A DNA stretch of 64,000 nt from the IMG/VR virus record IMGVR_UViG_3300027963_005443. One strand, given 5' to 3'. Positions 21,184 through 56,780 of this stretch are shown piece after piece (the stretch's first letter is position 1; every line of letters begins with the position of its first letter). A program made the translations under genes and the position numbers. The notes below the pieces were generated by a model. It saw only the letters and a program-made list of their open reading frames with translations, searched no databases and was not told the origin of the DNA. The DNA comes from a virus.

Positions 21184-21217
21184 ATTTTATATATACTTGC
21201 CAAGATAAAACTAAGGG
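21175..21217 (-). repeat. 43-bp junction repeat, left copy (inverted relative to 27933..27975)
   Basis: CCCTTAGTTTTATCTTGGCAAGTATATATAAAATATGCCAAAT on the minus strand. Confidence 0.9.
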
Positions 21218-26383: not shown

Positions 26384-27931
26384 ATGAGCAATAATACATG
26401 TAATTATCTAACTAAAATTATTAATATTCCCGGAGACTGGCGATCCGTATCTTGTTCTTCCAATGGCACGAAAATAGTGTGTATTAAACGGTATGATGGT
26501 TTATACCGCAGCATAGATTCTGGTAGTACATGGGTGAAAAAAATCAATTCCCCAGGTGATGGATTTTCTCATATTTCTGGCGACGGCCAAATAGGAATTT
26601 TTATATCACGCTACACATACAATGATATATATGTATCTCAGGATAGCGGACACACCTGGGTCAATAAACAACCGGGTCTCCCATTACAGGAATTTACTCC
26701 CACAGAATCTAGAATAATTTGCTCATCATATAGTGGAGATACTATTTTTATAGTGCCTGGTCTTTATGCGAGTTTAACAGGTTATTTTTACAAAAGCACA
26801 GATAAAGGAGATACTTGGACAAAAATTACATCGGGATTAGAGCCCTTTACATCCATATCTTGCTCAAGTGATGGTAATACAGTATTGGCTACAGGAAAAT
26901 CCAATGTTTATATAAGTAACGATTCTGGGCTGTCCTGGAGTGTACGCACGTTACCCGTGGCATTAAACGAGCAAGCGGATTGTGAACAATTATATGCTTG
27001 CTGTATGTCAAGCAATGGCACCTCTATGATGGCTTCAATCAGAGAAAAATTCAATGACACCCCATGTAACAGTCAAACAGTTTATGGGTCATTTATTAGT
27101 AGAAACGGCGGGTCTACCTGGGTCGGAGTGGACATAATAGCATCGCAATTAGCTTGTTCAGATGACTTTAGCACAATTTTAGCCGGAGCGGCTGGTTCGT
27201 ATTCATATAGAGTTAGTAAAGATGGGGGAAATTATTGGGCAAATATAATTGATCAAAATAATCCTGATTCTTTCAGGTATATTAGCGGGGTAGATTTAAA
27301 TAGCACAGGAGATAAGCTTTATATATCAGCTAGTGGCGCCAACTCTGTGTATGATAATGAGTTTATATACTCGGTAAATTGCGAAACTTTGCCTCCTATA
27401 CCAGGCACTACAACTACAGCAGCACCTACTACAGCAGCACCTACTACAGCAGCACCTACTACAGCAGCACCTACTACAGCAGCACCTACTACAGCAGCAC
27501 CTACTACAGCAAAAGAAATATGCTTCAGGGTAATTTGTCCAGATAACGATTGCGTATCAAATGTAGTTTGCATACCGGTAAACACTGCCCCGGAGGCACC
27601 GATTGATCACTCTTGTGATTGCATAGATTGTGGAACATGCCCAGAAGCGCCTCCCTTTGTTACTACAGTAGCACCTACAACTACAGTAGCACCTACAACT
27701 ACAGTAGCACCTACAACTACAGTAGCACCTACAACTACAGTAGCACCTACAACTACAGTAGCACCTACAACATCTCCGCCTGCTGGATGTTGTGAGGGGG
27801 CTTGCAACCCAATGGAGAAATGCTGTTCAGATGGCTTTGGCAACTGCGATTGCTGCCCAGAAATTAACTGGGTTTGCTGTCCAGGAAACTTGAATTGTGC
27901 AGCAACCTTGGCCGATTGCCCTCCTCAGTGA
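26384..27931 (+). CDS. Asp-box (BNR/sialidase-like) propeller protein + TTAAP/TTTVAP tracts + 12-Cys module
   Basis: S.D.G.TW repeats (SIDSGSTW, SQDSGHTW, STDKGDTW, SNDSGLSW); 15-bp and 18-bp tandem repeats; C-terminal WVCCPGNLNCAATLADCPPQ. Confidence 0.8.
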   Translation: MSNNTCNYLTKIINIPGDWRSVSCSSNGTKIVCIKRYDGLYRSIDSGSTWVKKINSPGDGFSHISGDGQIGIFISRYTYNDIYVSQDSGHTWVNKQPGLPLQEFTPTESRIICSSYSGDTIFIVPGLYASLTGYFYKSTDKGDTWTKITSGLEPFTSISCSSDGNTVLATGKSNVYISNDSGLSWSVRTLPVALNEQADCEQLYACCMSSNGTSMMASIREKFNDTPCNSQTVYGSFISRNGGSTWVGVDIIASQLACSDDFSTILAGAAGSYSYRVSKDGGNYWANIIDQNNPDSFRYISGVDLNSTGDKLYISASGANSVYDNEFIYSVNCETLPPIPGTTTTAAPTTAAPTTAAPTTAAPTTAAPTTAAPTTAKEICFRVICPDNDCVSNVVCIPVNTAPEAPIDHSCDCIDCGTCPEAPPFVTTVAPTTTVAPTTTVAPTTTVAPTTTVAPTTTVAPTTSPPAGCCEGACNPMEKCCSDGFGNCDCCPEINWVCCPGNLNCAATLADCPPQ

Positions 27932-29905: not shown

Positions 29906-32900
29906 ATGATAAATAAACACTTCGTAATAAACCAAATAGAATTAGATGATACAAATTTTGATGCACCAATAACAAAATTGGATGTACCAACTACATCACC
30001 ACCAGACACACCAACTACACCACCACCCAGGTGTCCTAGTTTTTGGATAAACTCAGGTGTAAACGCAGAAGTATTTTATAAGAAAAACTCCGGTCCTTGT
30101 CCTGGCGGGCATCGTTGCGACAGAGCTGTTTTCGATTTATATGTAAATGATTCATTGGTAAAAGAAAACATAAATTTAAATAATTTATCAGATGGAGGAG
30201 ATCGAACAAGCGGAGTCTTTTCAATTCCCACAGATATACTTTATTGGGATATCAATTGCGAATGCAGCTTCTATTTTAACCTAAAATGTAAGTTATCTTG
30301 TGATTGCCATAAAGGCTTGGCTTGGATTATAATTAAAAATTCAAGCGGTAAAGTTTTATATGATAACTGTATACCAAATGATGAGTATGTATTTATAGGG
30401 ACTTCTTGTAAATCTAATCAAAAATTGCCAGATATTAGTTGCTACAAATGTTCAGATTGCGAATTATTCCAAACACCAACTTCAAATATCGAAGATACTT
30501 GCGAATCTTTGGGTTACTTCTCAAACTTTACTGATTGTAATAATGTTTGCACTACAACTACAACCACAACTACAACCACCACGGCGGAACCGCCTTGGTC
30601 GCCCAGATGCAATAGTTTAATACTAAATGGAGGTTTTGACCAAGTTATTGGAGGTGGGGTTGGCCCCGATGCTACACACTGGTCGCTACAGAATGTATTG
30701 TTTCAATCAATACTTCCTATGCAGCCTGGGGGAATTTTTGTGAATCTAAATGGAGGAGATACTAAAACCGGATGTTCTCCTGGGTACATAGAGCAATCTT
30801 TTTCCACCGTAGTAGGCAATCAATATACATTGTATTTCAATATGTCTGCCGCCATAAATACATCTAATTTTCCTACAAATGAATATAAAGGACTCACGGT
30901 TACTGTGGCCGGGGTTACCGAACCTTACGAGTTTGACACCAACTTGCAACAAACGCCTACCTATCAGGGAATGGGATGGGTTTCAAAATCTTTAATATTT
31001 ACTGCAGTGGATGCTACTACGACCTTAAGATTTGAAAGCACATATAACGGCTGCTGGGGACCTGCGATAGATCGTGTTGAAGTTTGCGAGAATACAACAA
31101 CTACAACTACTACAACTACTACAACTACTACAACTACTACAACTACTACAACTACTACAACTACTACAACTACAACTACAACCACTACAACCACTACAAC
31201 TACTACAACTACAACTACTACAACTACTACAACTACACCTTCGCCTGGTTTCAGGCTAAAAGATTTTGGAAATAAAAGCCAATTGTTATCTCAAACAGAA
31301 GTAGAAGATGAAATTAAAATGGAGTTTACAAATTTTTATGATATTTACGACAATAAAAGAAGAATTCAGAGAGGGCTGACTCAGCCTAGTTATTGGGCCA
31401 TAAACAGATCTAAAAATTTAGCGGATCCATTAATAGAACTTTCGTCTGGGGCCAATGATACCGACAATAATCTTTATAGAGCAGACAGCATTTATGAAGT
31501 TCAAGGACCGTATATCGGAGATGATGTGAGCGGCCTTATTTATATGGGCGATCGTAGGCCAGGGGATACTGCCTCTCTTAATTTTTCTTCATCAAATAAA
31601 TTTTCTGCTGATCGTGTTCCAAAAATTAATATTGTCGAAAATAGAATAAAAGTGTCTACGGCAAATAATTCAAGAGAATATGAAAGAGATAGTAACATAT
31701 TAGAAATGTCTAATTTAGAAATAGTAGCAGAAAGTAAAAAAATAAAGAAAGTCTTAAATCCATCAAAACTTAATATTGTTACAGCAGGAGATAGTACTTT
31801 AGAAAAAACATCAACAGATTCAGGTTATTATCTGGCTTCGACAATAGACATATATACTATTGATCAAATCAATTTATCGAATCCTCCAAAGTTTTCAATA
31901 AGTGGAGCAGGTGTGTTATATTTCGGTAACTCACAAATAGGTAGCGGTTCATTAAAAATTACAAGTTCGGGCATTAGTAAAGATGTAGATTATGGCCAAC
32001 TGTCAGTTCTGGGATATCCTTCGTGTAGTGTTGCAGTTTACGATGGAGACTTGATAGAATTTAATGCCGAGCATAGTTCATTGTCTACGATAATTTTTAT
32101 GCCTTATTCAACTATGACTTTAGGATTGTATGATAAAAGTATTTCTGGAATAGTGGCGAACAATCCTGGGGTATCGGATTCTGGGGCGAGTTTTTATAAA
32201 TATGAATTAGTGAGCGGGGATGGAAGCAATGATAATTCTAGATTTAGTATAATTAATAATTGGCCCAATGGATTTTTAGTATGGAATGAAGATTCTACTG
32301 GTCTAACCGCTTCGTCTCAATTGTCAGTAAGAATTAGAGCAAAAAATGCAGAATATGGCACTATTATTGCTGAAAATTCAATAACATTTTCTATAATTCC
32401 TGCATCGAATAAAACATTAAGCCTTCCTTCCAATATACATCCTACAATTCAAGATAAATTAATAATATGCAGAGGAGATAGTTTTGTTTTTTATAGCATG
32501 TACGGCGACGGTGCTCGTAATATTTTTGTTCTAAAACCCTTTGGCAAAGGAGTTGATTCAGTTATTGATCCGTATAAACAAGTAAATATTAAAGAAAATC
32601 TTAATATGGTTTATGAATTTAAAATAATAGGAGAAACAGAGTGGAATATTTTTTTAATTAGTTCCCTTCATAGTCAAGGGACGAATTATTATCTCTATCT
32701 TAGCACGGATGATCTATACTTTAGAAGTCCATGGCAGGGTTCCTTTATAATTCCTAGTTGCAAAGATGTTCAATTTAGGTGCTATATTTGTGATGGAAAA
32801 CCTGATTCTTTAGGACCTTTAGGGTCAGGTCCATACATATACTCTGATATTATTAAATTTCCTCCACCCAATAAATTAGACTGTGATGATTCTAGTGTTT

Positions 32901-32938
32901 TTGAACCATCAAATTTTTACGTATCTTTTGACCCTTAA
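29906..32938 (+). CDS. modular protein: GPCPGGH domain, DUF642-like domain, ~48-residue poly-Thr, cadherin-like segment
   Basis: SGPCPGGHRCDRAVF...CHKGLAW; DUF642-like motifs; FYKYELVSGDGSNDNSRFSI (cadherin-like). Confidence 0.75.
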   Translation: MINKHFVINQIELDDTNFDAPITKLDVPTTSPPDTPTTPPPRCPSFWINSGVNAEVFYKKNSGPCPGGHRCDRAVFDLYVNDSLVKENINLNNLSDGGDRTSGVFSIPTDILYWDINCECSFYFNLKCKLSCDCHKGLAWIIIKNSSGKVLYDNCIPNDEYVFIGTSCKSNQKLPDISCYKCSDCELFQTPTSNIEDTCESLGYFSNFTDCNNVCTTTTTTTTTTTAEPPWSPRCNSLILNGGFDQVIGGGVGPDATHWSLQNVLFQSILPMQPGGIFVNLNGGDTKTGCSPGYIEQSFSTVVGNQYTLYFNMSAAINTSNFPTNEYKGLTVTVAGVTEPYEFDTNLQQTPTYQGMGWVSKSLIFTAVDATTTLRFESTYNGCWGPAIDRVEVCENTTTTTTTTTTTTTTTTTTTTTTTTTTTTTTTTTTTTTTTTTTTTTTTTPSPGFRLKDFGNKSQLLSQTEVEDEIKMEFTNFYDIYDNKRRIQRGLTQPSYWAINRSKNLADPLIELSSGANDTDNNLYRADSIYEVQGPYIGDDVSGLIYMGDRRPGDTASLNFSSSNKFSADRVPKINIVENRIKVSTANNSREYERDSNILEMSNLEIVAESKKIKKVLNPSKLNIVTAGDSTLEKTSTDSGYYLASTIDIYTIDQINLSNPPKFSISGAGVLYFGNSQIGSGSLKITSSGISKDVDYGQLSVLGYPSCSVAVYDGDLIEFNAEHSSLSTIIFMPYSTMTLGLYDKSISGIVANNPGVSDSGASFYKYELVSGDGSNDNSRFSIINNWPNGFLVWNEDSTGLTASSQLSVRIRAKNAEYGTIIAENSITFSIIPASNKTLSLPSNIHPTIQDKLIICRGDSFVFYSMYGDGARNIFVLKPFGKGVDSVIDPYKQVNIKENLNMVYEFKIIGETEWNIFLISSLHSQGTNYYLYLSTDDLYFRSPWQGSFIIPSCKDVQFRCYICDGKPDSLGPLGSGPYIYSDIIKFPPPNKLDCDDSSVFEPSNFYVSFDP
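31094..31238. repeat. poly-Thr tract (ACT/ACA/ACC triplets)
   Basis: About 48 consecutive Thr codons, ACTACTACA periodicity. Confidence 0.9.
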
Positions 32939-34372: not shown

Positions 34373-35653
34373 TTAGTGCGAACATCTTAGAATCAATGTA
34401 TCATAAAGCCCTAACGCTCCTTGTGTTAAAGTTTTAGCACAAACAACAGCAATAGTATTTATTGAAGTTAATCCTATATTTGCTACTATGTTAACTTGCT
34501 CACCTATTTGCCAATTTTCTAGATTACTCCCCGGGTATAGCAATGAATTCTGCCCTCTTACCACACGAAAAACTGGGTGCGTTGATAGAGCAAAGGCGGT
34601 CCATGAGCTTCCAGAGCTGACTCCAGTTATTACCCAACTTGTATCACCCACGCCTCCTCCGCCAATAGACCATTCAGAAAAACAACTATTATCGATTGTA
34701 GAACAGTTGTCAATAGTTGTGAGAGTAGGTGTTAGTGTTGGTGTATTAGTTGGGGTTGAAGTAAGTGTTGGGGTTGAAGCCGGAGCATTTTCACATCTCA
34801 AGCTAAACTTTACACCATTGTTTTTAACAAGTCTAATAACTTTTGTTATGTGTCCATCAACAGTATCACAAATAAAACTATAATCTCCATTTGCAGTAAT
34901 CAAATCATCACTTCTTGAACTATTTTCTTTTAAATTATCCTGGAAATCAAACTCTATTGGAAAACAACTTTTAAAAATTGTGGGCGTAAGAGTTGGAGTA
35001 GGCGTTAAAGTTAAAGTAGAAGTTGGTGTTGGGGTAGAAGTTTGGGTGAGAGTGGGAGTTGATGTGGGGGTTGTGGTAGGCGTTAATGTGGCAGTGGTAG
35101 TAGGCGTAAGAGTTTGCGTTAATTCAGGAGTAGTGGTTGGAGTTAAAGTTGCGCCAAAAGTATATGTGAGAGTAGGAGTTAAAGTAGGAGTCTGTGTTGC
35201 ACTGGTGGTTGGTGTCGGGGTAGCTGTGGGCGTGCTAGTCGGTGTTGGGGTTATAGTACTTGTTAATGATAAGGTTGGTGTACTAGTTGGCGTAAAAGTA
35301 GGTGTGGGCGTTGGAATCAAACACGTACCAATAACCTCAAATTCCCATTCTGTGGATGCTCGTAAACTTTTTATAAGTAAAATTCCACTCTCAGGGGCCA
35401 ATAAATCTTTATTGAATAATAAAGTCCCTTCCAGGCCTCCCTGAACAGTACCGTACCCCTTGCTTATAAGTTCTTGATCAAAACTTGGATCGCCAACGAA
35501 ACCAGACGAATACTGATTATTATTCCAAATTATCGTAAATCTTACTGGTGGAACTGGGCCTGTGTCATTATTGGGATTTAATTTATATTTTATCCCGTTC
35601 AGTCCGGTATTTGGCCCAAAATCAATTACATACTTATAATCTAATTTATACAT
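34373..35653 (-). CDS. Thr/Pro-rich protein with N-terminal domain shared with 42697..48201
   Basis: Start moved to ATG 35653; [10 protein letters not shown]...SGFVGD vs PVRFTVEWNG...SGFVGD; TPT tracts. Confidence 0.7.
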
Positions 35654-35670
35654 AAGTTTAAACCTAAAGA

Positions 35671-35680
35671 ATATATATAT
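35671..35680. promoter_or_regulatory. shared (bidirectional) TATATA putative late promoter
   Basis: ATATATATAT between divergent starts at 35653 (-) and 35685 (+). Confidence 0.45.
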
Positions 35681-35684
35681 GTAT

Positions 35685-36275
35685 ATGTTAAACTTCAAAA
35701 AATGGATAGAAAACACAACTTTAGGAACAGAGAACGTAGATGAGTCTCAAATAGACAGAATATACGATAAAGCTAAGGTTTCCGTTAAATTAGTTCAATT
35801 ATATGGAAGAGAAACAAATCAAAAAATATTAAATAATATATCTACTGTTGCAAATCTAGCCTCTGGCGCTTATGGCTTATATAACTCAAAATATAACAAA
35901 AAAGTCATAAATCAAAATGCAATGAATAAAATTAGATTTAAATTTGGAGAAGACATAATAAAAAACAACAAAATAAATAATGTTCCAGAAGCTGTGATAA
36001 GAAAATATATACCCGATATTTCTGATAACGAGGTGCAGCAAAGTGATGTGATATATGTCAATGTCTCAAGGATAATTTCAGAATTTGGCGACACCGGCAG
36101 AGCAGTACTTGAAATAGCATCCACAATAGTGCACGAATCAACGCATGAAAAAGAAAGAGAAGAAAAAGGATACACCAACGAAACTGGGCCTGTTATGGCT
36201 GAAAAAAAGTTTTTAAATTGGTTCAAATCAAATCAAAATAGATTATTAACCCTATTTCCGCAAATCAAATTATGA
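35685..36275 (+). CDS. putative HExxH metallopeptidase with capsid-targeting-like N-terminus
   Basis: MLNFKKWIE start; IVHESTHE...ETGPVMAE. Confidence 0.55.
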
Positions 36276-37819
36276 TCATACCATCTAAAAATAATCTATC
36301 AGTAAAAAAGAATCTAACTAATTTAGGATTTAATCCAAGCTGGAACAATCTTGAATGGCATTCAAGACAAAAAGAAGTTGAAATGTTATTTTCAAAAGAT
36401 GGATATAACAAAAAAATGCCAGCAGTCTACAACAGAGAAGAAAAAGCTGTTCTTTGTGATAAAAAATGGAATTTTAATAGCAATTGCCCCTCACCTTCAA
36501 GTTTTTGGCCAAGTCCAAGAAATTGTTGGAATAATGGAATCGGAAACGCAACCACTGAATTTTGCGTTCCGAAAAAACTAAGCAAAAATTCAGTAAAACA
36601 AGTTAATAAAAAAATACCCTTCTCTAAGGGAGACAGTTTATTTGTTCATCTAAAAAACTATTTTGAATCAAACAATAGATGGGATAAGAGTCAATTTTGT
36701 TTAGGAAGTTTTTGCGTTACTCCAACTCCTACTCCAACAACAACAAAAATAAAACCAACTCATACTCCAACAAGAACTCCGACTCTTACAAGAACATTAA
36801 CAGCTACTCCCACCCCAACATTAACGTCGACATTTGGATTAACTCCTACTCCTACAACAACTTATGGATTAGATCCCACACCTACTTTAACACCTACTTT
36901 AACGTATACATTTGGACTAACTCCCACACCAACCACCACTTTCGGATTAGCTTTAACGCCAACTCCAAGCTACGGATTAAATCTACCCACTCCAACACCA
37001 ACAACAACAAGCATCGAAAATATAGTAGCAAGACTATCCTCGGATGTTTATCTAAATTTAGATTTTGAATCAATTGACTCTAAGTTGGTTACACAGAACG
37101 ATTCAATTGTTAACATAAATGTATCAATAGAAAATATATTATCAAAGGGAATCATAGATGGCCGTGTTAACTGCAATGACAAAGAAGATAATTTCTCAGT
37201 AGAAACGCCCCCGGAAACTACGACCACCACAACCACAGAAGAACCAACCACAACCACAACCACAACCACAGAAGAACCAACCACAACCACAACCACAACT
37301 ACAACCACAACTACAACCACAACACTAGCCCCAACTACATTACAATTAACATCGTATCAAATGTGGATGAACGGATTAGACGTTGAATATACCTCGGGTC
37401 CTATATACAATAAATATGAGTATATGTCACGATATGGCGGCTCATTAAGTTGGAGTATCAGTGATTTAGTAATAAATGGGCAGTCAATAGTCGGCGGAGG
37501 ATCAGAATACAACAGAACAATAAATGCTGCCGGTACGGTCTACAGAGATGACGGCAACGGAGTTGGAATTGCCAACTGCGTTGATATGTTAAATGTAATC
37601 ATGGATGATTTTGAATTAACAACAAGATTTGAAACTTATAGTGGTTCATTAATTCATGCCAATTACTACACAGCTGATAATTTCAGTTTAACAATAACTG
37701 AATCTTATAGTTTGGTTGATTCCAACGATCCTTTAAATCCTAGTGTGTATTCGATCTTGGCAGATGGTAGTGGTATAAAGGATGGGATCGCTGGTGCACC
37801 TGATACAGATTGGCAATAA
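36272..37819 (+). CDS. Thr/Pro-rich hypothetical (putative virion) protein
   Basis: 515-aa ORF, ATGA overlap, TPTPT and poly-Thr/EP tracts. Confidence 0.7.
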
Positions 37820-37823
37820 ATAT

Positions 37824-39116
37824 TTAAATTCCGCCCTCGTATCGATCAACCCAGCCAGCACTCTTAGAATGCATCCATACAACCCATTTTTGTGGCTTGA
37901 CCTCACAATTAAATTCTCTCCACACCTTTAAATAATCTTTATCTTGCTTCATCATGTTTATTTCATTTTCATCGGCATCTCTTCTGTTTATAACAGTTCC
38001 ATCATTCAATTCAAATGAAACTACCCAAAAATCATAGTCATCATGCTTTAATTGATTGTGATAAATATCAATACAGTGCTTGAATATCTTCAAGAAAGAA
38101 TTCTTGTAATCTTCATCATTATCTATTACAGGATTGGGAGGATTTTTTAAATCCAGGGTAAACTGCTGGACTGCTCTCATTTTAAAATTAAGTCCGCTAT
38201 ACCTCTCATACTCTTCCAAAGTTCTTTCTTTGCCAAAGTCATATGGACCGAAATCAATATCTTTTTTTTCTCCATCCATCTCGAATAATTTTCGATTTCT
38301 TCTATGACAGGTATCGTTCTTCTCTACCCAATTCTTATCGTCATCCCACTGTTTTGTTCTTCCTTGACGGGTATATTCATGCCAAGCAATTATCTTGTGA
38401 GGATGAAATAGATCATAACCACAAGTATATGCTCTTACTGCTATGCTAATCTCTTCTCCATGAAAATAATAGTTTGGATCGTGTTGAACTTCTTTAGCAA
38501 AACTGCCTGGGGCAAAACAAAAGTGAGCACTATAAAATCTAGCGGGGATTGGCTCTTTTAGATTTTGCCATCCTTCTATGTGTCCTGGCAAGAAGAATAC
38601 AGCTCCTTCGGGTATAAACCTGTCGAAATTCATTCTCCAAGGCTCTTGAACACGCTCTGCTGGGTCGTTCAATGGATTAAAACTTGGAATATACGAAGTG
38701 ATTAAAGGCTTCTTGTGTCCTTTTTGTTTTAATTGTTCGAGAATGTTTATGCATTCAGTGTCCCAATTTTTAACAAATCTATGGTGGCTATCTATTTGAA
38801 AAGTCCAATCTTCTCCTCCATAGCTCTGTTGGGTTAGGTTTCGTGCCCAACAAACACCACGACTATCTGTGTGTTTAATATCCAATATTATAAATCTTGG
38901 ATCATTTTTATATTCGTCTAAATTATCCCAAACATCTTCTGATGAATGTTGCCATGCGATGCAAATTTTTAAATTCTCAGGATGCTCGGCATTTGCAATC
39001 ATATCTCTGAGAGTGTGAATTAACTGATTATCTCTATATGATGCTATTTGTACATATATAGAGTTTTTCTTAACATCATTTGAATTGCCAATAGTTTTAT
39101 TTTTCTTCTTTTTCAT
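37824..39116 (-). CDS. GT60-like (GlcNAc family, Skp1 Gnt1 / ppGalNAc-T-related) glycosyltransferase
   Basis: IYVQIASYRD, SRGVCWARNLTQ..YGGE, FQIDSHHRFVKNWD (DxH), FYSAHFCF, YFHGEEISIAVRAYTCGYD. Confidence 0.8.
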   Translation of the reverse strand: MKKKKNKTIGNSNDVKKNSIYVQIASYRDNQLIHTLRDMIANAEHPENLKICIAWQHSSEDVWDNLDEYKNDPRFIILDIKHTDSRGVCWARNLTQQSYGGEDWTFQIDSHHRFVKNWDTECINILEQLKQKGHKKPLITSYIPSFNPLNDPAERVQEPWRMNFDRFIPEGAVFFLPGHIEGWQNLKEPIPARFYSAHFCFAPGSFAKEVQHDPNYYFHGEEISIAVRAYTCGYDLFHPHKIIAWHEYTRQGRTKQWDDDKNWVEKNDTCHRRNRKLFEMDGEKKDIDFGPYDFGKERTLEEYERYSGLNFKMRAVQQFTLDLKNPPNPVIDNDEDYKNSFLKIFKHCIDIYHNQLKHDDYDFWVVSFELNDGTVINRRDADENEINMMKQDKDYLKVWREFNCEVKPQKWVVWMHSKSAGWVDRYEGGI

Positions 39117-39471
39117 TTTCTATGCCTTTAAATAATGTGTCCACAGCACGATCTTGCTGAAGTAATATTAACTTTGCTTTTAATAGAGTTATTTTTTCAC
39201 GAATAATTTTTCTGTTTGTGATTGCTTCTTTTTCCTTAAGAATCATCTCCCTCTTAAAGCTATTTAAAGCACCAACATAACTGGAGGCTAATTCAGAAAT
39301 ATCTTCTCCAGAAACTTCAATCTGTCTGCTTAATTGACTTTCGAGAACTTCTGCAACTTCTCTCATTCTGGCATACTCAAGATCATCTGGGGACCTTGTT
39401 TTTTCGTATATCTCGAGAGAATCGAGAAGGATATCGATTTCTTGATCTGTGAAACTTTTTGTATTAATCAT
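39097..39471 (-). CDS. hypothetical helical protein
   Basis: 124-aa ORF overlapping neighbours. Confidence 0.65.
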   Translation of the reverse strand: MINTKSFTDQEIDILLDSLEIYEKTRSPDDLEYARMREVAEVLESQLSRQIEVSGEDISELASSYVGALNSFKREMILKEKEAITNRKIIREKITLLKAKLILLQQDRAVDTLFKGIENEKEEK

Positions 39472-39644: not shown

Positions 39645-40166
39645 TTAACTTCTCTTAGGAACGTGAATTCTTACTTCGTAACCGCCCCAAATATCAGTAA
39701 TCAAATCATTGATGAAATTCCAATTTCCCCCAGCAGAACCGGCGCCAAATTTAGGAGCATGAATTTCCAGTTTATTAGAATCAACGGAGTTGTAATTATT
39801 TTTAATAAAGGCCCCCAACAAGGACATACACTTAACTAAACTCAAGTAATTAAGTGGTCTTGTGTTTTTCTTTGATGGTAAACCATTTTGAGCAATCATG
39901 TTTACAAAAATAAGATTTCTTTTTTTATTGTCTCCATCAATTTTAATTACTTGATTTTCACCAAGTTTATAAACACCCATTAATTCATAATTTGCTTTAA
40001 CTATTGGATAATTTCTGGCTACTGCTGTGGCGAACCCAGAGTCAAAACTACCAATATTATTAACAATGTGGGGAACAATAATATCTGTTGATGTGTTATT
40101 GTTTATAAATTCAAAAATATCATCATAAACTATGTAGGGAGAATTTGGGCGAACATTTGTTTTCAT
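39645..40166 (-). CDS. macrodomain (ADP-ribose processing) protein
   Basis: IIVPHIVNNIGSFDSGFATAV...FVNMIAQ...IHAPKFGAGSAGGNWNFI. Confidence 0.8.
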   Translation of the reverse strand: MKTNVRPNSPYIVYDDIFEFINNNTSTDIIVPHIVNNIGSFDSGFATAVARNYPIVKANYELMGVYKLGENQVIKIDGDNKKRNLIFVNMIAQNGLPSKKNTRPLNYLSLVKCMSLLGAFIKNNYNSVDSNKLEIHAPKFGAGSAGGNWNFINDLITDIWGGYEVRIHVPKRS

Positions 40167-40289: not shown

Positions 40290-42686
40290 ATGTCTTCTTT
40301 AATAAATAATAAAAAAAGTTTTAAAATAAAAACTAACGATAACTCTTGGAGATCATTAGGATCTCTGCATATAGACAATAATTCTTTTTTATATTTAAAA
40401 TTTAAAATATTAGGTAAATACGACTATAATCAATATAAAATTTATGAAGAAAATATAGTAATAAATTTATTCGAAGGCAATTTAAACGTTATCGATAGAC
40501 AAGTTGCGGCAAATTCTGGGTCTGTTGATGCGGAAGTTTCAATATTTCCAGATTTTGGCCCACTAAGAACATATAGAGGGGCAAATTATCAATCATCCAC
40601 CATAGGAGCATCTACAAGATACACAGACTATCCAAATGCATCTTTTAGCTATCTTGGATTCAGACTAGCGTCATTAACAAATCCATATGGACATATTTAT
40701 ACTGGAAATCCGACAGATTTTTCTGCTTATGTTTTGGTGGGAGACAGTAAAAATGAACCTAATAAATATGGAAAAAGCGCAACAGTAAATGGATTGGGAG
40801 GAGTATCCTATGATTACTATATTCGTAGATGTCCAATAACAAACAATGAATATGCTGAATTCTTAAATTCAGTAACAACTGGATTTGTTGATCCATATGG
40901 TCTTTTCGACAATAGAATGAGCACAGATCCTTCGGGAGGAATATTAAAATCAGGAAGTGATTTTGTTGCAAAAACTGGGATGGGGACCAAGCCAGTTAAT
41001 TTCGTAAATTGGTTCAGTTGTGCACGTTTCTGTAATTGGATGCATAGCAATAAATCGGCAGTTGGTACTGAGAGCGGAGCCTATAAATTAAATGGCGCAA
41101 CCAGCGGAATATTTAAAGCCAATCCAGAAAGCAAATATAGACTTCCAACTGAAGATGAGTGGTATAAAGCAGCATATTATGATGGATCTTTATTATATTA
41201 TAATTACTCTACCCAAAGCAACACAATACCAGATCCAGTTTTGGCGAGCAATAATGGGAATGCAATATCCACGGGTAATTCAGCTAATTATAATAACAAA
41301 GCACTTTATGATGGATTTCCAATACCAACAGGAATAGGACGCTCCAAAGTAACAACAGTGGCAACTAACGGAGATCCTAGTTATTATGGAACTACTGACC
41401 AGGATGGAAACGTATCTGAATGGACTGATGCATTAGACAACAGAATGACAATATCTGTGAAGGGTGAATCAGGTTCAAACATATTGTGGAAAGGTGAAAT
41501 TGAAGTACTTGATATATTATCCAAGGAAGGTGGCGGGATGGGACAACCTAAAGTTCCGCCAACGCCCACACTTACCGCTACAATATCAACACCAACACCT
41601 ACTAAGACACCAGTAACACCAACACCTACTAAGACACCAGTAACACCAACACCTACAATAACACCTACGCTGACGAGGACGCCCACAGGCACAGCTGTCG
41701 CAACTCAGACCCCAACATTAACCCACACAAAGAGTACTCCGACAATAACAGCGACAAGAACACAAGCAGCCACAAGAACTCCTACTCGTACACCAACATT
41801 AACCTCAACACCAACATTAACCGGCACGCCCACACTGACACCCACATTAACTTCTACAAAAACATTAACTCCAACATTAACACTAACTCCAACAAAGACA
41901 AGCACGCCAACATTAACAAGAAGTAATGGAGGTGGCCCATTGCCAACTCAAACAATGACAGCCACATTGACGCAAACATTAAACGATGGATCAATAATTT
42001 GCGGAGACACAGACAGTGGAGGAGGACCCGTAACAACCACTACTACAACAGTTGGACCAACTACAACCGCTGGGCCAACCACAACCACAACCACAACTAC
42101 CGTTGCTCCGTGCCCCGGTGATAGTATAAATTATATTCTAGGTTTATGCCTAGGGCCTATTTCGGGTGGCATCTGCAGTCAACAAAGTAGCGGGAACTTA
42201 AGCGTTAAATATATACAAAATGATGTACTTAATCCTAACTACGGACTTTTAGACACAACAAGTTGCAACCAAGTTACAGTACATTATTTAGCAAGTTCTA
42301 GGGCAGACTCAATAAGTAACTATTCAATTGGAGAAGTAAGAGCCACCAGAGTAACACCTTCTGGGTTGGGGGCCAGTCAAACTATATTCACATTTGATTA
42401 TGCGACATCAACACAAACTCCCGCTGGGGCTGGGCCATTCCTGCCTACTGCAAACGGATATGATTGGGAGCCCACTATAAACTCTGCAGTATTATTAAAT
42501 GCATTCGGAATAACAAGTTCCGGAGAATACATATTCCTCGTAGAGTATAGGGCATATAATTGCAATGGAACTTCTGATTGGCGAAGAATAGGTGATATTG
42601 ATGAAAGCGGTCCATTATGTAACGAGGTTCCCGGGGCAGGTGGAATTTACAAAGTTTGCGGAACAATAACAGTAACTGTACCCTAA
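40290..42686 (+). CDS. protein with circularly permuted FGE-sulfatase (SUMF1/EgtB/PvdO, CLec-fold) domain, TPT linker and C-terminal domain
   Basis: RG.N...GFRLAS precedes VLVGD..N...YDYYIRRCPITNNEYAEFLNSV...KPVNFVNWFSCARFCNW...LPTEDEWYKAAYY...SYYGTTDQDGNVSEW. Confidence 0.85.
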   Translation: MSSLINNKKSFKIKTNDNSWRSLGSLHIDNNSFLYLKFKILGKYDYNQYKIYEENIVINLFEGNLNVIDRQVAANSGSVDAEVSIFPDFGPLRTYRGANYQSSTIGASTRYTDYPNASFSYLGFRLASLTNPYGHIYTGNPTDFSAYVLVGDSKNEPNKYGKSATVNGLGGVSYDYYIRRCPITNNEYAEFLNSVTTGFVDPYGLFDNRMSTDPSGGILKSGSDFVAKTGMGTKPVNFVNWFSCARFCNWMHSNKSAVGTESGAYKLNGATSGIFKANPESKYRLPTEDEWYKAAYYDGSLLYYNYSTQSNTIPDPVLASNNGNAISTGNSANYNNKALYDGFPIPTGIGRSKVTTVATNGDPSYYGTTDQDGNVSEWTDALDNRMTISVKGESGSNILWKGEIEVLDILSKEGGGMGQPKVPPTPTLTATISTPTPTKTPVTPTPTKTPVTPTPTITPTLTRTPTGTAVATQTPTLTHTKSTPTITATRTQAATRTPTRTPTLTSTPTLTGTPTLTPTLTSTKTLTPTLTLTPTKTSTPTLTRSNGGGPLPTQTMTATLTQTLNDGSIICGDTDSGGGPVTTTTTTVGPTTTAGPTTTTTTTTVAPCPGDSINYILGLCLGPISGGICSQQSSGNLSVKYIQNDVLNPNYGLLDTTSCNQVTVHYLASSRADSISNYSIGEVRATRVTPSGLGASQTIFTFDYATSTQTPAGAGPFLPTANGYDWEPTINSAVLLNAFGITSSGEYIFLVEYRAYNCNGTSDWRRIGDIDESGPLCNEVPGAGGIYKVCGTITVTVP

Positions 42687-42696: not shown

Positions 42697-45600
42697 ATGA
42701 GTAATAAAGCTAAACATCAATATACGTTAAATCTTGGAAATTGCACCGGTACATTCATTTTAAATTATGATGCATCAAATCCACCTAACGTAGCATCAGT
42801 TCCTGTAAGATTCACAGTAGAGTGGAACGGAAAAATAACAACCTCTGGTTTTGTGGGAGATCATGCACATGACCTACAATTATCTGCTCTTGGATTCCCT
42901 GCGGTCAACTCATCACCAAGAGACAATCCAGTTGGATCTTTTACGATAAATAAAAATTTGTCTTCACCTCCAACAGCAACACTAACAGTTGATTCACCTT
43001 TGTCTGGGGCTATTTGGACTTTTGGACTTAGTTGCAACTTAACAGTTTGTCCAACAACTACAACGACCACGACTACAACGACCACGACTACAACGACCAC
43101 GACTACAGCAGCACCGGGCACTACAGCAGCACCGGGCACTACAGCAGCACCGGGCACTACAGCAGCACCGGGCACTACAGCAGCACCGGGAACCCCGTGC
43201 GTTAATTGTGGAGGAGCAGGTGCTCATGGTGCCGGTCCTGGGGTCGGAGGAGGTGGGGGTGCGGGTGGTGCGGGAGGTGGTGCGGGAGGTGGTGCAGGTG
43301 CGGGTGCAGGAGGCGGTGGTGCGGGTGCAGGAGGCGGTGGTGCAGGTGCAGGAGGAGGTGGTGGTGCTGCAAGAGGTATTCCTCAATACCACCTTTATTC
43401 TTGGGGCGCAAATAGCTCCAGCCAAATTGGAGATGGAACTCTATCAGATAAATTAACGCCCATAAACATAGGATCCTACTCGGCAAGTAGCTACACAGTT
43501 TCTACTGGATATAGTCATTCCATGATACTTGTAGATAATGAACTATACATGTGGGGAAGCAACGTAAAAGGTCAACTTGGAAATAATACGAATATTGACC
43601 TTTTAACTCCCTCCAGAACCGGATTGATTTTATCCTCTAATTCGGCAACTCCTTGGACAGCAGCTTCAACTTCTGCTCCTATAAAAATTAAATTTGAAAA
43701 CGGAAAGTTTGTCGGTATTAACGGAAAAACATCTAACGATACCGGCGCTAGCTGGGCGAGTAGTTCGGTGACCATGAGCAATACACCAGTGTTTGGAAAT
43801 GGGACCTGGGTTGCGTGGAACTATTATTATAGTAGAGGACTATACTCAGAGACATCAGAGGTCCGTCCGTATACAAGTCCAGATGGAACCAATTGGTCTC
43901 AACAGACCTCCTTGCCATACACAATAGATACCGGATCCTTGTCCATAGGAAAGCCCACTAATAGTCACTACTTACCAGGTGTGCAACCTATATCTTTTGT
44001 CAATGGAAAGTTTTTTGGATTCATTGGAACTAAAGGCAAAGGATCTCCAAAAAATGTAATCCCATTATATTCCACAGACGGCGACACATACGACAGAGGA
44101 ACAACATCTGGGTTGGTCTATGTTGACCAGTGGAACGGAGCAACAGCATATGCAGACCTATGCGAAGTAAGAGGAATAGCCAACAGCCCGCCTTTGCTTG
44201 GCGGCATTGGTGGCCCAACCATGTCAGTAGCAGTTGGTCGTGGATTGAATGGGAATTTAGCTAATTCATCGATAAAAACCAGTAAGTGCATACGCTCAAC
44301 AGATCAAATTAATTGGACCGCAACTACACTGCCTTTTGCAGCAATGTGGAATGGGATAGCTTATGGAAATGGAAGATTTGTGGCGGTTTGTGATGGTGCC
44401 GATGCTGCAACTAGCACAGATGGAATTAATTGGGTGACTATTAAAATGCCATCTACATTAAACTGGACAGACATTGCTTTTGGAAATGGTATTTGGGTAG
44501 CAGTTGGAGGACCGTCTTCTGTGGTGGCTGTTTCTAAGGATGGTGTAAATTGGAGTAAGGTCACTACTCTGCCTGTTTCGGCCACCTGGTCTGGTGTCGC
44601 CTATGGCAACAATAAATTCCTCATAACTAGCACAAAAGGCGTTTCACTAATCGCTGATTCATTCACAGTCAGTTCTAATTTAAGACCGGGCGATTTCAAA
44701 TACGCAACACTTGGAAAAAGACACTCTGTAGGTATAAGTCCGGCAGGATTTATGTATACTTGGGGAGATAATTCATACGGTCAATTGGGAGATGGAACTA
44801 ATGTAGATAAAAAAATACCCACAAAAATAACAAGTGTAAACAATGGATCTAGTATAAAGAGTGCCCCAGCGTGGTCATATGTGGCGGCAAGTAATCATAA
44901 TTTAGCAATAACTAAATCAGGAGCTTTATATGCTTGGGGAAATAATAACAACGGTCAATTAAGCAGTGGGGTGACCGTTACAACCACAACAGGTTCACCA
45001 ATCACAACAACAGTCGCACCGGCTTATTTGTCCGTGCCGTTATTAATAGATTCGGGCAAATGGTATGATGTAGATGTTGGTAATAGCCATTCTATGGGAT
45101 TGAAATGGGATGCAAGCCAAACAAATTTAGAACTATACACATGGGGATCTAATCAATACGGACAATTAGGAGATGGAACAAACAACTCTAGTTCGGATCT
45201 TTTAAGGGTTCCCGATCCCCCGGGCTCTACTTGGGCAGCAATAGCCTGCGGTACAAATCACTCAATGGCATTAGATGCCAACGGACAGTTATACACATGG
45301 GGAAGGAATAATCATGGCCAATTAGGAGATGGAACAATTATTGATAAAAATTCTCCGGTATCACCAGCAAGCTCTATAATATTTAATTTAATAGATGGTG
45401 GCGGAGATAAGTCAATAGCGGCAGATGAATTTAAAAATCTATATTCTTGGGGAGAAAATTCTTCAGGAGAATTAGGCTATAACACATTGGTTGACAATAA
45501 AAATATAGTAAAAAATACTTATCTGGAGAATATTTTAGAAGTATCAATAGGAGATCATCATTCAATTGCACTATCTATAGATCCGCCAAAAGTTATAAAT

Positions 45601-48201
45601 AACAGCATATGGGCAAATGCATCGTCTTCTGCTCCTGTGCGGGTTGCATTTGAGGATGGACAATTTACGGGCAACGACATCAGAATGTCTTATGATGGAG
45701 GATTTAATTGGCAAACAACTGATATAGATTTTAGCTATGCACATAATTTCACTACACCGGTATTTGGAGGAGGAACTTGGGTAACATGGAAACATTTTTA
45801 TGTCAGTGGATCCACAATATATAATAACGCAGTACTAACTTCAGAAATCTCAGAAATCAGGCCCTACACAAGTCCGGATGGCATTAATTGGTCGCAACAA
45901 ACTACCCTATCTTATAAACTAAATAATGGTTATCCATCGATCTCAACACCATCTAATTCTCACTCTGCGGCCGGTGTTCAAACAATGTCGTTTATCAATG
46001 GAAAGTTTTTTGGTTTTATCGGGACTAGGGGTAAGGGGTCTCCAAAAAATGTAAAAGTATCATATTCCACAAATGGAGATACGTGGACACAAGGATCTGT
46101 AACAGGTTTAAACTATGTTGATCAGTGGAATGGAGCAACAGCATATGCAGATCTATGTGAAATCAGAGGTATAGCTAATAGCCCAACCATGTCAGTAGCA
46201 GTTGGCCGTGGATTAAGTGGAAATTTAACAACATCTCCAATCACAACCAATAAGTGCATACGCTCAACAGATCAAATTAATTGGGCCGCAACTACGTTGC
46301 CTTTTGCAGCGGTGTGGAATGGAGTAGCTTATGGCGATGGAAGATTTGTTGCTGTGTGTGATGGATCAAGAGCCGCTACCAGCACAGATGGAATTAATTG
46401 GACTTCTATTAATATGCCATCAACTTTAAATTGGACTAGTGTTGCATATGGAAATGGGAAATGGATCGCAGTTGGAGGACCATCTTCGGTGGCCGCTACA
46501 TCGACAAATGGAATAAATTGGACAAAAATTACATTGCCAATATCTGCTGTTTGGTCTAGTGTGGCGTATGGAAATGGAGATTTCCTTATAACTAGTACTA
46601 CCGGAACATCTTTGAGAGGATTGACTAGCCCCACAACAACAATTTCCCCTGCATCGAGAGCGGGAATAGCTCCTCGTGTTCCTACTGGACCACTACCTTG
46701 TTGTCCCTCCGGTGCTCCGAATACTTCCGGAGAGACTCATTTACACAATATTGGAAAAAGTTGGGCCTCGCCGCTCTCTCCTGTAGTATGGGACGACAAT
46801 GTGGTTGGACCCTACTGGATGATTGAGTGGTATGAGGTTGACAGTAACGATGGGGTGCACGCCTGGATTTCTAAAAGAGAGGCCGTGTGTCTATTTCCGG
46901 GGACAAACAGAATAGATGGTGTAGTAAGAGTAGGATCGCCTAAAGGATGCACGTTAAGTGCAACTGTAAACAAAACATGGAAACCAGATATAAGTTGCAA
47001 CCCACTTTGCACAGAAACCGAAACGGGCATGGGTCTTAAGGCAAACTTCAATTATAATGTCATTAAAAATCTTAAAGGATTTGGAGGAATGCATTGGGTA
47101 AACACACAATATGTAGCAAGTCTAAATAATATTAGTTTCCCAACCAATGGGATTATAGGACCGCTCGGCGCAGGAGCTAGTGTTTGTGGATCAAGCTGCG
47201 CCTACAGAGTATATGATAATAATTACATGGGTGCGCTTGATGGTTTTACCTTGGGATTAATGAACAACCAACCAGGATCAATGACTGCAGAAGCTAGTAA
47301 TGTAATTGGTAACCTTGCCTGTTTACAGACTAGGCTAAGCGGAAAAACATGTGGAGGCCAACCAAAAATAAATTTTCATCTAAGCAAAGAAGATAAAAAA
47401 TATAGAGAATCTTTATATCCGGTAGCAGCTACAAACAACCGTGATGATGATCCACCTTGCTGCTCTGCTGATGATATGGTGCGTGGGTCAGAGGAATGCG
47501 GTGGAGGGGAAGGGCCCACATTAGACCCGCCAACTGAGTGTCCGGATACACCTTGTGCTTGCCATTACACAACAGACGGCAATCCCGACTGCACTATGTT
47601 GGCTCCAGGGGATCTATCTACATGTAGTTTAATTTATAATGGAATTCTCACCTGTGATTGCTCTGGGAGCTGTAACCCAGATGATCCACCTCCTACATAT
47701 AGTTGGTGGAGGTGCACAGGCGATGGGAATTGCTGTCAGGCTGGGGTCGATGATGGATGTGAACCATGCGACAACAACGATGAAGATTGCTATGGCGGAT
47801 ATGGGGCAAATTCTTCATGCAATAATAATTGCAATAATGAAACCACTCCCCCGCCGCCGACTGATGGTTGGTGGAGATGCACAGGCGATGGAAGTTGCTG
47901 CCATGCCGGGGTCGACAACGGCTGCGCTGCTTGTAATGATCAAGATTTGGATTGCTATAGCGGAAATTCAGCGCAGAGTGATTGCAGCAGAAATTGCGAT
48001 CAACCAACAACTACACCATCTCCACCACCTCCGCCTGATAATTGTACTGTTGAAAATTGTGGAGGGAATCCTTGCTCCAGCCCCTCAGATAAATGCTGCG
48101 GAGACAATGCTGGTAACTGTAGTTGTTGCTCAGAAATTACTTGGGTTTGTTGCCCAGATCAAATATATTGCGCAGCATCACTAGGAGATTGTCCTCCTTA
48201 G
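42697..48201 (+). CDS. 1834-aa modular protein: N-domain, Gly tract, 7 RCC1 repeats interrupted by a propeller, duplicated propeller, Cys-rich tail ending in the 12-Cys module
   Basis: 7 LY.WG.N..GQLG repeats; W....LP....W.GIAYGNGRFVAV repeats in two copies; C-terminal WVCCPDQIYCAASLGDCPP. Confidence 0.85.
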   Translation: MSNKAKHQYTLNLGNCTGTFILNYDASNPPNVASVPVRFTVEWNGKITTSGFVGDHAHDLQLSALGFPAVNSSPRDNPVGSFTINKNLSSPPTATLTVDSPLSGAIWTFGLSCNLTVCPTTTTTTTTTTTTTTTTTTAAPGTTAAPGTTAAPGTTAAPGTTAAPGTPCVNCGGAGAHGAGPGVGGGGGAGGAGGGAGGGAGAGAGGGGAGAGGGGAGAGGGGGAARGIPQYHLYSWGANSSSQIGDGTLSDKLTPINIGSYSASSYTVSTGYSHSMILVDNELYMWGSNVKGQLGNNTNIDLLTPSRTGLILSSNSATPWTAASTSAPIKIKFENGKFVGINGKTSNDTGASWASSSVTMSNTPVFGNGTWVAWNYYYSRGLYSETSEVRPYTSPDGTNWSQQTSLPYTIDTGSLSIGKPTNSHYLPGVQPISFVNGKFFGFIGTKGKGSPKNVIPLYSTDGDTYDRGTTSGLVYVDQWNGATAYADLCEVRGIANSPPLLGGIGGPTMSVAVGRGLNGNLANSSIKTSKCIRSTDQINWTATTLPFAAMWNGIAYGNGRFVAVCDGADAATSTDGINWVTIKMPSTLNWTDIAFGNGIWVAVGGPSSVVAVSKDGVNWSKVTTLPVSATWSGVAYGNNKFLITSTKGVSLIADSFTVSSNLRPGDFKYATLGKRHSVGISPAGFMYTWGDNSYGQLGDGTNVDKKIPTKITSVNNGSSIKSAPAWSYVAASNHNLAITKSGALYAWGNNNNGQLSSGVTVTTTTGSPITTTVAPAYLSVPLLIDSGKWYDVDVGNSHSMGLKWDASQTNLELYTWGSNQYGQLGDGTNNSSSDLLRVPDPPGSTWAAIACGTNHSMALDANGQLYTWGRNNHGQLGDGTIIDKNSPVSPASSIIFNLIDGGGDKSIAADEFKNLYSWGENSSGELGYNTLVDNKNIVKNTYLENILEVSIGDHHSIALSIDPPKVINNSIWANASSSAPVRVAFEDGQFTGNDIRMSYDGGFNWQTTDIDFSYAHNFTTPVFGGGTWVTWKHFYVSGSTIYNNAVLTSEISEIRPYTSPDGINWSQQTTLSYKLNNGYPSISTPSNSHSAAGVQTMSFINGKFFGFIGTRGKGSPKNVKVSYSTNGDTWTQGSVTGLNYVDQWNGATAYADLCEIRGIANSPTMSVAVGRGLSGNLTTSPITTNKCIRSTDQINWAATTLPFAAVWNGVAYGDGRFVAVCDGSRAATSTDGINWTSINMPSTLNWTSVAYGNGKWIAVGGPSSVAATSTNGINWTKITLPISAVWSSVAYGNGDFLITSTTGTSLRGLTSPTTTISPASRAGIAPRVPTGPLPCCPSGAPNTSGETHLHNIGKSWASPLSPVVWDDNVVGPYWMIEWYEVDSNDGVHAWISKREAVCLFPGTNRIDGVVRVGSPKGCTLSATVNKTWKPDISCNPLCTETETGMGLKANFNYNVIKNLKGFGGMHWVNTQYVASLNNISFPTNGIIGPLGAGASVCGSSCAYRVYDNNYMGALDGFTLGLMNNQPGSMTAEASNVIGNLACLQTRLSGKTCGGQPKINFHLSKEDKKYRESLYPVAATNNRDDDPPCCSADDMVRGSEECGGGEGPTLDPPTECPDTPCACHYTTDGNPDCTMLAPGDLSTCSLIYNGILTCDCSGSCNPDDPPPTYSWWRCTGDGNCCQAGVDDGCEPCDNNDEDCYGGYGANSSCNNNCNNETTPPPPTDGWWRCTGDGSCCHAGVDNGCAACNDQDLDCYSGNSAQSDCSRNCDQPTTTPSPPPPPDNCTVENCGGNPCSSPSDKCCGDNAGNCSCCSEITWVCCPDQIYCAASLGDCPP

Positions 48202-56114: not shown

Positions 56115-56780
56115 CTATATATTATATTTGAAGATACTTGACTTGCTTATGGCTTGGGTGAACTTTTTATTTTTCATCTTTTCATAGAAATCTTTAGACA
56201 GATCTTCAATATCATTAGTATCTTTAAATAAGCCTACATTACTGAAGAGATCTCTATGGCAAATAAAACTATAGAGCGGTAAATATTCATTCTCCAAGAT
56301 AACATCAGAGTTCTCGTCTTGGAAATTTAAGAAAAATGAATTATTCTGAATATATGGCGAAACAATCTTTACTCCCCGGGACTTTAATCTCTGCATGGTT
56401 TCACCCAAATTCAAAAGCCAAGATGGACCTAACGGGGTTGTTTCTGGGCTAAGGACAAGAATCCATGGATTACTGGACTTTTTAATAACTAAGTTTATAT
56501 TTTCCCCGAGTGTCTTGGGTTGTGCATTTCTATGAAACTCCATGAAATCAAATTTTTTAAAATTTTCTATAAACCCAAGTTCAAAAGAACTATTGTAAAC
56601 AATATTTAATTTATACTTGTTAATAACAGTTTTAAGAATATTCTCAAACAAAGAAATTAAAGAGTTATAAGATCCATTGAACGGAACAATAATATCCAAC
56701 CTGGCGTCGGAGAATCTAGCTATTTCAAAAGCCTTTGATTTAAATGTTTTTTCTTCCATATAATTCTTCCCATTTTTCAA
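56115..56780 (-). CDS. GT2-like (GT-A fold) protein, probably degenerate
   Basis: LDIIVPFNGSY...LGENINLVIKKSSNPWILVLSPET (DxD position replaced). Confidence 0.55.
   Translation of the reverse strand: MKNGKNYMEEKTFKSKAFEIARFSDARLDIIVPFNGSYNSLISLFENILKTVINKYKLNIVYNSSFELGFIENFKKFDFMEFHRNAQPKTLGENINLVIKKSSNPWILVLSPETTPLGPSWLLNLGETMQRLKSRGVKIVSPYIQNNSFFLNFQDENSDVILENEYLPLYSFICHRDLFSNVGLFKDTNDIEDLSKDFYEKMKNKKFTQAISKSSIFKYNI

Follow-up and report, generated by a model that had tools for sequence, protein, structure and literature searches.

In the protists Dictyostelium and Trypanosoma cruzi, enzymes of glycosyltransferase (GT) family 60 start mucin-type O-glycans on threonine- and serine-rich domains (PMC8724618). 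Here, we describe a gene of the same family that lies on the minus strand at positions 37824-39116 of a 64,000-nt stretch of the IMG/VR virus record IMGVR_UViG_3300027963_005443 (hereafter the window, meaning the whole 64 kb), together with genes for proteins with long threonine/proline (T/P) tracts. The protist enzymes are alpha-N-acetylglucosamine (alpha-GlcNAc) transferases that belong to the same Pfam and CAZy family as the window enzyme and share with it the DxH motif, a motif like that of the Gal/GalNAc-transferases (Gal/GalNAc-T) and the lack of a ricin-type lectin domain. Moreover, their acceptors are dense Thr-rich mucin-like tracts that resemble the tracts encoded in the window. They differ from the window enzyme in that they are type-II membrane proteins of the Golgi, whereas the window enzyme is soluble, cytoplasmic and phage-encoded, and carries a conserved beta-rich C-terminal domain of ~100 aa. 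Like the window enzyme, the Skp1 hydroxyproline GlcNAc-transferase Gnt1 of Dictyostelium and Toxoplasma is a soluble cytoplasmic GT60, and it acts on a cytoplasmic protein; it modifies a single residue and needs a prolyl 4-hydroxylase partner, whereas no such hydroxylase was found in window ORFs of at least 150 aa. The animal and Toxoplasma N-acetylgalactosamine (GalNAc) transferases of family GT27 (Protein Data Bank (PDB) entries 8v9q, 2ffu, and 8uhv) share the DxH motif and the architecture of the catalytic domain with the window enzyme at only 11-15% identity. Unlike the phage enzyme, the GT27 enzymes have a ricin lectin domain, reside in the Golgi, and use UDP-GalNAc.

Phages have also been described that glycosylate their own virion proteins. 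According to the summary in one report, the mycobacteriophages Che8, Corndog, and Myrna glycosylate capsid and tail-tube proteins with GTs of their own (PMC12363180, citing Freeman 2023). In that account, phage GTs act on virion proteins of the same phage within the host cytoplasm, which parallels the modification of its own proteins that we propose for the window phage. The acceptors named there, however, are not long T/P tracts but capsid and tail-tube proteins, and the hosts belong to another group. The mycobacteriophage GTs are members of a family other than GT60. In the virions of the Xanthomonas jumbo phage XacN1, two bands stain with periodic acid-Schiff (PAS), and the authors propose the products of two open reading frames (ORFs), ORF328 and ORF334, as the makers (PMC5852040); neither the GT family nor a link to T/P tracts is remarked on in that paper. 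ORF334 is a homologue of the window GT60 (49% identical), and XacN1 has about 15 ORFs with TPTxT tracts, several of which adjoin tail genes (ORF350, ORF369-372). XacN1, Xoo-sp13, and RAS14 are, like the window phage, jumbo phages with TPTxT-tract proteins. In view of the PAS-positive virion proteins of XacN1, the proposal made for them, and the glycosylated mycobacteriophage virions, the statement in an initial annotation of the window that no characterised phage has such a pathway was too strong. No paper that we found connects GT60 with phages or with T/P tracts. We think that the window GT60 probably O-glycosylates threonines in the T/P tracts of the phage's own proteins.

The GT60 ORF is intact, starts with ATG, and encodes 430 aa. 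Its match to the Pfam profile PF11397 ('GlcNAc', the CAZy GT60 family) scores 240 bits, where the cut-off is 21 (E = 6.6e-71), and extends in two stretches over positions 2-350 of the 352 in the profile; the ORF also matches PHROG 24687 ('glycosyltransferase') over its full length (E = 3.6e-172). The GT-A catalytic domain spans approximately residues 19-320 and the beta-rich conserved C-terminal domain approximately residues 340-430. In GT60, DxH is the metal-binding motif that replaces the DxD of GT-A enzymes (PMC7185993). This motif is present as DSH at residues 109-111 (D109-S110-H111). All 14 close homologues share it, and conservation of the three residues across 55 diverse homologues is at least 90%. 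It is accompanied by HGEEIS...R...G at residues 219-233 and WHEY at residues 245-248. Specifically, F114, W118, F201, E221, E222, R228, G233, and H246 are invariant in the 55 GT60 homologues, which reach down to 34% identity, and catalytic roles seem plausible for E221, E222, R228, G233, and H246. The stretch HGEEISIAVRAYTCGYD presumably corresponds to the Gal/GalNAc-T motif of GT27, which it resembles. By its profile match and motifs, the window enzyme is thus a true member of GT60 with the catalytic motifs in place, which agrees with the initial annotation of a GT60-like enzyme with an intact DSH. The enzyme contains no transmembrane (TM) segment or hydrophobic stretch (maximum 19-residue Kyte-Doolittle score 0.51) and is therefore soluble.

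The predicted fold places the enzyme close to transferases that initiate mucin-type glycans. An AlphaFold2 model built from the 14 close homologues was poor, with a predicted local distance difference test score (pLDDT) of 58 in the middle, and the diverse alignment of 55 sequences was used instead, which gave a model with a pLDDT of 95.4. The PDB structures closest to this model are GalNAc-T1, GalNAc-T2, and GalNAc-T3. All top matches in a Foldseek search against the PDB are polypeptide GalNAc-transferases (E ~3e-10; 2ffu, E = 2.7e-10), and in an independent VIA structure search mGalNAc-T1 scored Z 21.2 (280 residues), TgGalNAc-T3 from Toxoplasma scored Z 20.0, and other GT-A enzymes stayed at Z 16.9 or below. 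PDB sequence searches with the single protein and with the 14- and 55-sequence profiles gave no meaningful match, so the link between the window enzyme and GT27 comes from the comparison of folds. The suggested kinship of GT60 to the polypeptide GalNAc transferases is borne out at this level, the nearest solved structures being the mucin-initiating GT27 enzymes. A search of the ESM Atlas with the C-terminal domain (residues 325-430) returned no usable match.

The window is rich in candidate acceptors for such an enzyme. We defined a T/P-tract ORF as one of at least 100 aa carrying a tract whose Thr+Pro content is 60% or more per 20 residues, and found 13 of them, in keeping with the earlier count of at least a dozen genes with Thr/Pro or poly-Thr tracts. 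These ORFs take up 55% of the window and hold 2155 tract residues (976 of them Thr) in tracts of the TPTxT or poly-Thr type, the longest poly-Thr run being 48 residues. At the DNA level, the window has 361 matches to the pattern for TxTxTxTxTxTxTxT, and 100 shuffles have none. Both peptides that had been put forward as acceptors are present, TPTPTKTL in the product of 53264-54808 and TTAAP in that of 26384-27931. One T/P-tract ORF, at 36272-37819 on the plus strand, converges on the 3' end of the GT60 gene with a gap of 4 nt. Simple hydropathy analysis identified no signal-peptide-like N-terminus or TM segment among the 13 T/P-tract proteins. Because neither the GT60 nor these proteins have a signal peptide or TM segment, enzyme and candidate acceptors meet in the cytoplasm.

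We propose that the GT60, as a soluble cytoplasmic retaining GT-A enzyme, would transfer N-acetylhexosamine to the Thr hydroxyls in TPTxT and poly-Thr tracts, and family precedent points to alpha-GlcNAc from host UDP-GlcNAc as the donated sugar. The acceptors would be the phage's own large multidomain proteins, modified during their synthesis in the cytoplasm of the infected cell and thus before assembly or release at lysis. These acceptors may be virion or fibre proteins, and the first sugar might be extended by other GTs. The outcome would be extended, protease-resistant, and shielded linkers; that glycosylated tracts would stiffen and shield is suggested by analogy.

The pairing of GT60 with T/P tracts recurs in other genomes. 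Lack of genomic co-occurrence had been named beforehand as an outcome that would count against the idea, and co-occurrence was found in freshwater jumbo phages, in the cultured XacN1 group, and in several bacterial phyla. Among 92 viral GT60 loci (up to 10 kb on each side), which form one clade with 58-75% identity so that the counts are not independent, 66 have a T/P-tract ORF. The TxTx DNA pattern is present at 64 of these 92 loci and at 0 of 80 random viral loci (1670 kb versus 692 kb of sequence compared), a control that is not matched for habitat or lineage; many of the records compared are fragments. The random control consists of records picked by a random 14-mer and replaced a PhoH-based set of 9 loci. 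Starting from the tracts instead, PF11397 was found in 12 of 47 viral records picked only for TPTxTPTx versus 1 of 51 random records (p = 6e-4), and this single positive (L247) lies on the GT60-positive contig of another of our loci, L005; without it the random count is 0 of 50. The base rate of the TxTx pattern is 2 in 50 random records and 0 in the 8 near-complete ones. It is present in all three near-complete GT60-positive records that were not picked for tracts, as well as in XacN1. In the three cultured GT60-positive jumbo phages compared, which form an independent clade, the number of TxTx matches is 122 for XacN1, 64 for Xoo-sp13, and 3 for RAS14, and all eight GT60-negative relatives by DNA polymerase (Rak2-like jumbo phages and T4-like phages of 141-359 kb) have 0 matches (p = 0.006).

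In bacteria, we observed a T/P-tract ORF within 10 kb of GT60 at 27 of the 80 best GT60 loci, often directly upstream. Bacteria with GT60 and a nearby T/P-tract ORF belong to at least six phyla, namely Bacteroidota, Gemmatimonadota, Acidobacteriota, Planctomycetota, Verrucomicrobiota, and Proteobacteria. The T/P protein near GT60 in Burkholderiales is a VgrG spike of the type VI secretion system (T6SS) with a (TP)n tail that, like the phage proteins, is made in the cytoplasm and lacks a signal peptide. In 12 bacterial genomes, chosen because the pattern occurs near GT60, the 21-kb GT60 neighbourhood makes up 0.2-0.5% of the genome and holds 1.5-93% of its Thr-alternating matches; the share is 50 of 54 in Ralstonia and 46 of 54 in Achromobacter (85-93%). 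Two details of the bacterial loci may be added. The Burkholderiales VgrG genes (Phage_GPD plus gp5_C domains) lie 1-6 kb from GT60 in Ralstonia and Achromobacter (L419:12315-15179 and L424:15052-17523), and in Gemmatimonadaceae, proteins of ~241 aa with a PqqD-like domain and, after it, a T/P tract are encoded directly upstream of GT60 (L394:9272-9997 and L387:8510-9235).

The family as a whole is widespread, with 6601 GT60 homologues at E < 1e-5, 4352 clusters at 50% identity, at least 565 IMG/VR contigs, and 535 bacterial species genomes. The cultured jumbo phages XacN1, Xoo-sp13, CM1, and RAS14 (the last two from Stenotrophomonas) each encode a homologue with 46-50% identity over 94-96% of the length. 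We also noted giant proteins of 1600-2460 aa (P0122, P0124, P0128, and P0135) with three or four GT60 domains each. The best 'bacterial' matches to the window GT60 (56-61% identity) come mostly from short, low-GC contigs of metagenome-assembled genomes (L372-L386) assigned to Saprospiraceae, Cytophagaceae, Arcticibacterium, and Melainabacteria. These contigs resemble phage DNA that was binned wrongly; alternatively, they may point to a host among the Bacteroidota.

Several observations weigh against glycosylation of the phage's own T/P tracts, in addition to the dependence among the 92 viral loci and the unmatched random controls already mentioned. GT60 is missing from 5 of 7 near-complete viral records that bear T/P tracts, so the tracts do not require the enzyme. 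The PAS-stained bands of XacN1 are not assigned to particular proteins, and we know of no bacterial or phage GT60 that has been biochemically characterised. None of the T/P proteins in the window matches a structural phage family or a structural PHROG, and in this respect the idea that they are virion fibres found no support in the window. Finally, in most relatives GT60 is part of an operon with an HtrL_YibB-like gene, often near a DNA polymerase gene, and is not tied to a particular T/P gene; an HtrL_YibB-like homologue is found neither in the window nor in its two nearest contigs (104 and 188 kb).

This gene context of the relatives bears directly on a different explanation, namely that GT60 serves to make or modify a non-protein glycan, for instance the lipopolysaccharide (LPS) core or capsule of the host (as in superinfection exclusion) or a phage polysaccharide, and that the tracts are unmodified linkers typical of the lineage. 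We regard this as unlikely, though as the likeliest of the alternatives. The commonest neighbour of GT60 is a 557-aa HtrL_YibB-like protein (PF09612, E = 2e-21), encoded downstream on the same strand at 84 of the 92 viral loci (for example L097:12891-14564) and also present in XacN1 (ORF330, L001:17327-18967, 41% identity), and its family is named from the LPS-core cluster of Escherichia coli. Other neighbours among the 92 loci are a GT25 'LPS biosynthesis' enzyme (30 loci), a CmcI-like methyltransferase (27 loci), and a family-B DNA polymerase (26 loci), the first two of which, lying beside GT60, would fit an envelope glycan. In addition, GT clusters of jumbo phages have been read as modifiers of envelope polysaccharides (PMC7824862), and T/P tracts occur in phages without GT60. 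Against this, every characterised GT60 acts on polypeptides, and the nearest structures to the window enzyme are polypeptide GalNAc-transferases, which score well above polysaccharide GT-A enzymes. Modification of an envelope glycan also leaves the direct adjacency of GT60 to T/P genes in unrelated bacteria unexplained, and the window keeps its GT60 without the HtrL and GT25 partners; the methyltransferase of the relatives is absent as well. Few window genes recur near GT60 in relatives. Thus, GT60 usually resides in a glycan-building or glycan-tailoring operon, and since the HtrL-like partner is absent, the window lineage keeps the initiator alone at this place. The XacN1 group has GT60, a carbamoyltransferase, and the HtrL-like gene in one operon near the DNA polymerase, and the window is without that operon. 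The carbamoyltransferase, a protein of 765 aa encoded between GT60 and the HtrL-like gene (L001:13430-15727 and L342:10396-12693), suggests a carbamoylated glycan in that group.

A second alternative, to which we give even less credence, is that GT60 glycosylates some other, specific protein: a hydroxyproline as in Skp1 and Gnt1, a host protein, or one particular capsid or tail protein. Gnt1, the sole characterised cytoplasmic GT60, acts on one hydroxyproline of one protein, and the tracts are also rich in Pro. Moreover, among hundreds of contigs the enzyme retains 60-77% identity and the genes around it differ, as a fixed target predicts, and the extra conserved C-terminal domain could dock a specific partner. 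However, we found no prolyl 4-hydroxylase (2OG-Fe(II) oxygenase) domain in window ORFs of at least 150 aa, and of 10 GT60-positive phage records only 2 contain the corresponding profile PF13640 (1 above the cut-off), with no match in the XacN1 group or in the contigs nearest to the window. The Gnt1-like hydroxyproline route was rejected on these grounds. Nor does a single target explain why GT60 is repeatedly adjacent to diverse T/P proteins in bacteria.

Glycosylation of hydroxymethylated phage DNA bases as an anti-restriction modification is very improbable and was rejected. In its favour, phage GTs commonly modify DNA, and in XacN1-like and many freshwater relatives a few kb separate the gene from those for DNA polymerase and RNase H. 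However, the GT-A enzymes known to glycosylate DNA are of the JGT-like type, which has R...DDD...EDY/F motifs and TarP as the top PDB match (bioRxiv 10.1101/2023.12.21.572611). The window enzyme has neither JGT-like motifs nor the GT-B fold of the T4 enzymes AGT and BGT; it carries DxH, and the structures nearest to its GT-A fold are the GalNAc-transferases (TarP reached only Z 15). Neither the window nor the 25 commonest neighbour families yielded a base-hydroxymethylating gene, be it a thymidylate-synthase-like hydroxymethylase or a TET/5mYOX gene.

Beyond Thr glycosylation by the window phage itself, we tentatively suggest, with somewhat less than even confidence, that mucin-type O-glycosylation has a counterpart in prokaryotes and viruses, initiated by cytoplasmic GT60s. 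Such a system would coat Pro/Thr linkers in proteins whose exit from the cell bypasses Sec, among them the fibre proteins and enzyme-bearing proteins that jumbo phages make, and T6SS VgrG spikes. If this were true, the 'PT linkers' of contractile-injection machinery would be glycosylated bottle-brushes, and the Thr/Pro 'linkers' of phages and T6SS would be glycosylation sites and not passive spacers. The Golgi pathway of protists would then descend from a cytoplasmic system, and GT60/GT27 mucin-type glycosylation would gain a cytoplasmic branch in prokaryotes and viruses. It would also explain a very common phage gene and would bear on the stability, protease resistance, adsorption, and antibody recognition of phages. 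The idea is directly testable, given that XacN1, Xoo-sp13, CM1, and RAS14 are in culture.

The 13 candidate acceptors of the window differ widely in their domains. Two at the left end of the window are M43-like metalloproteases followed by a TPT linker and then an fn3 domain (79-1992, 637 aa, and 2079-3884, 601 aa; both minus strand). They are followed on the minus strand by a 1423-aa protein that is 24% Thr and has 590 tract residues (8750-13021), a giant RCC1-repeat/fn3 protein of 2309 aa that holds six tracts of the T/P or poly-Thr kind (14254-21183), and a Cys-rich protein of 578 aa with 46 Cys and NTTSPP repeats (21211-22947). On the plus strand lie the genes for a BNR/sortilin-like protein of 515 aa with TTAAP and TTVAP repeats (26384-27931) and a DUF642-domain protein of 1010 aa, which contains the uninterrupted poly-Thr run of 48 residues (29906-32938). 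Closer to the GT60 gene, a 447-aa protein with 154 tract residues is encoded on the minus strand (34373-35716), and the convergent ORF 36272-37819 encodes 515 aa with 160 tract residues and a poly-Thr run of 15. The remaining candidates are a 798-aa T/P-tract protein with an FGE-sulfatase/C-type-lectin-like domain (40290-42686, plus strand), an RCC1-repeat protein of 1834 aa with a poly-Thr run of 18 residues (42697-48201, plus strand), an S8 subtilase of 514 aa with TPTPTKTL repeats (53264-54808, plus strand), and an FGE-sulfatase-like protein of 603 aa with a TPTLT tract (62114-63925, minus strand). Four T/P proteins (8750-13021, 14254-21183, 21211-22947, and 42697-48201) have 46-61 Cys each and no signal peptide. 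Synthesis in the reducing cytoplasm is odd for such Cys-rich proteins and implies that their disulfides would form only after lysis.

Some other sugar-related genes of the window had been named together with GT60 in the initial annotation. Three overlapping ORFs on the plus strand (4330-6769) encode a GT47/exostosin-like protein (4330-5265; PF03016, E = 5.5e-18), an unassigned protein (5253-5924), and a weakly GT-D-like protein (5909-6769; PF22882, E = 3e-4, below the cut-off), and none of them has a PHROG match. On the minus strand (56115-57342), rmlC, the gene for dTDP-4-dehydrorhamnose 3,5-epimerase (56740-57342; PF00908, E = 2e-52), overlaps a 221-aa ORF (56115-56780), the sole candidate for the gene that had been described as GT2-like, and this ORF matches PF00535 only at E = 0.15, below the cut-off. 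The assignments of the GT47-like and rmlC genes thus stood, and that of the GT2-like gene did not. None of the GT47-like, weakly GT-D-like, GT2-like, and rmlC genes is conserved near GT60 in relatives, which leaves a role for the GT47-like, GT2-like, and rmlC genes in the pathway without support. It is possible that the ORFs at 4330-6769 encode glycan-extending enzymes and that the genes at 56115-57342 serve a deoxy-sugar branch.

Immediately upstream of the GT60 gene, a 124-aa ORF with no assigned function (39097-39471, minus strand) overlaps the start of GT60 with its final 20 nt, and because of this overlap the two are probably co-transcribed; the ORF is not conserved beside GT60 in relatives. 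A scan for promoter and terminator signals around the GT60 gene did no better than shuffles. A further ORF on the minus strand, of 173 aa (39645-40166), matches PHROG 335 ('phosphatase', E = 2e-12) and recurs near GT60 in 14 related loci. Among hallmark and auxiliary genes, the window encodes PhoH, adenylosuccinate synthetase, a GMP reductase/IMPDH-type enzyme, an HNH endonuclease, and a radical SAM enzyme, in addition to rmlC. On a viral contig of 104 kb with an estimated completeness of 21%, the PhoH is 99% identical to that of the window, and these figures for the contig imply a genome of near 490 kb. GT60 homologues with 74-77% identity sit on contigs of 487 and 490 kb. The source of the window is an uncultured giant freshwater phage.

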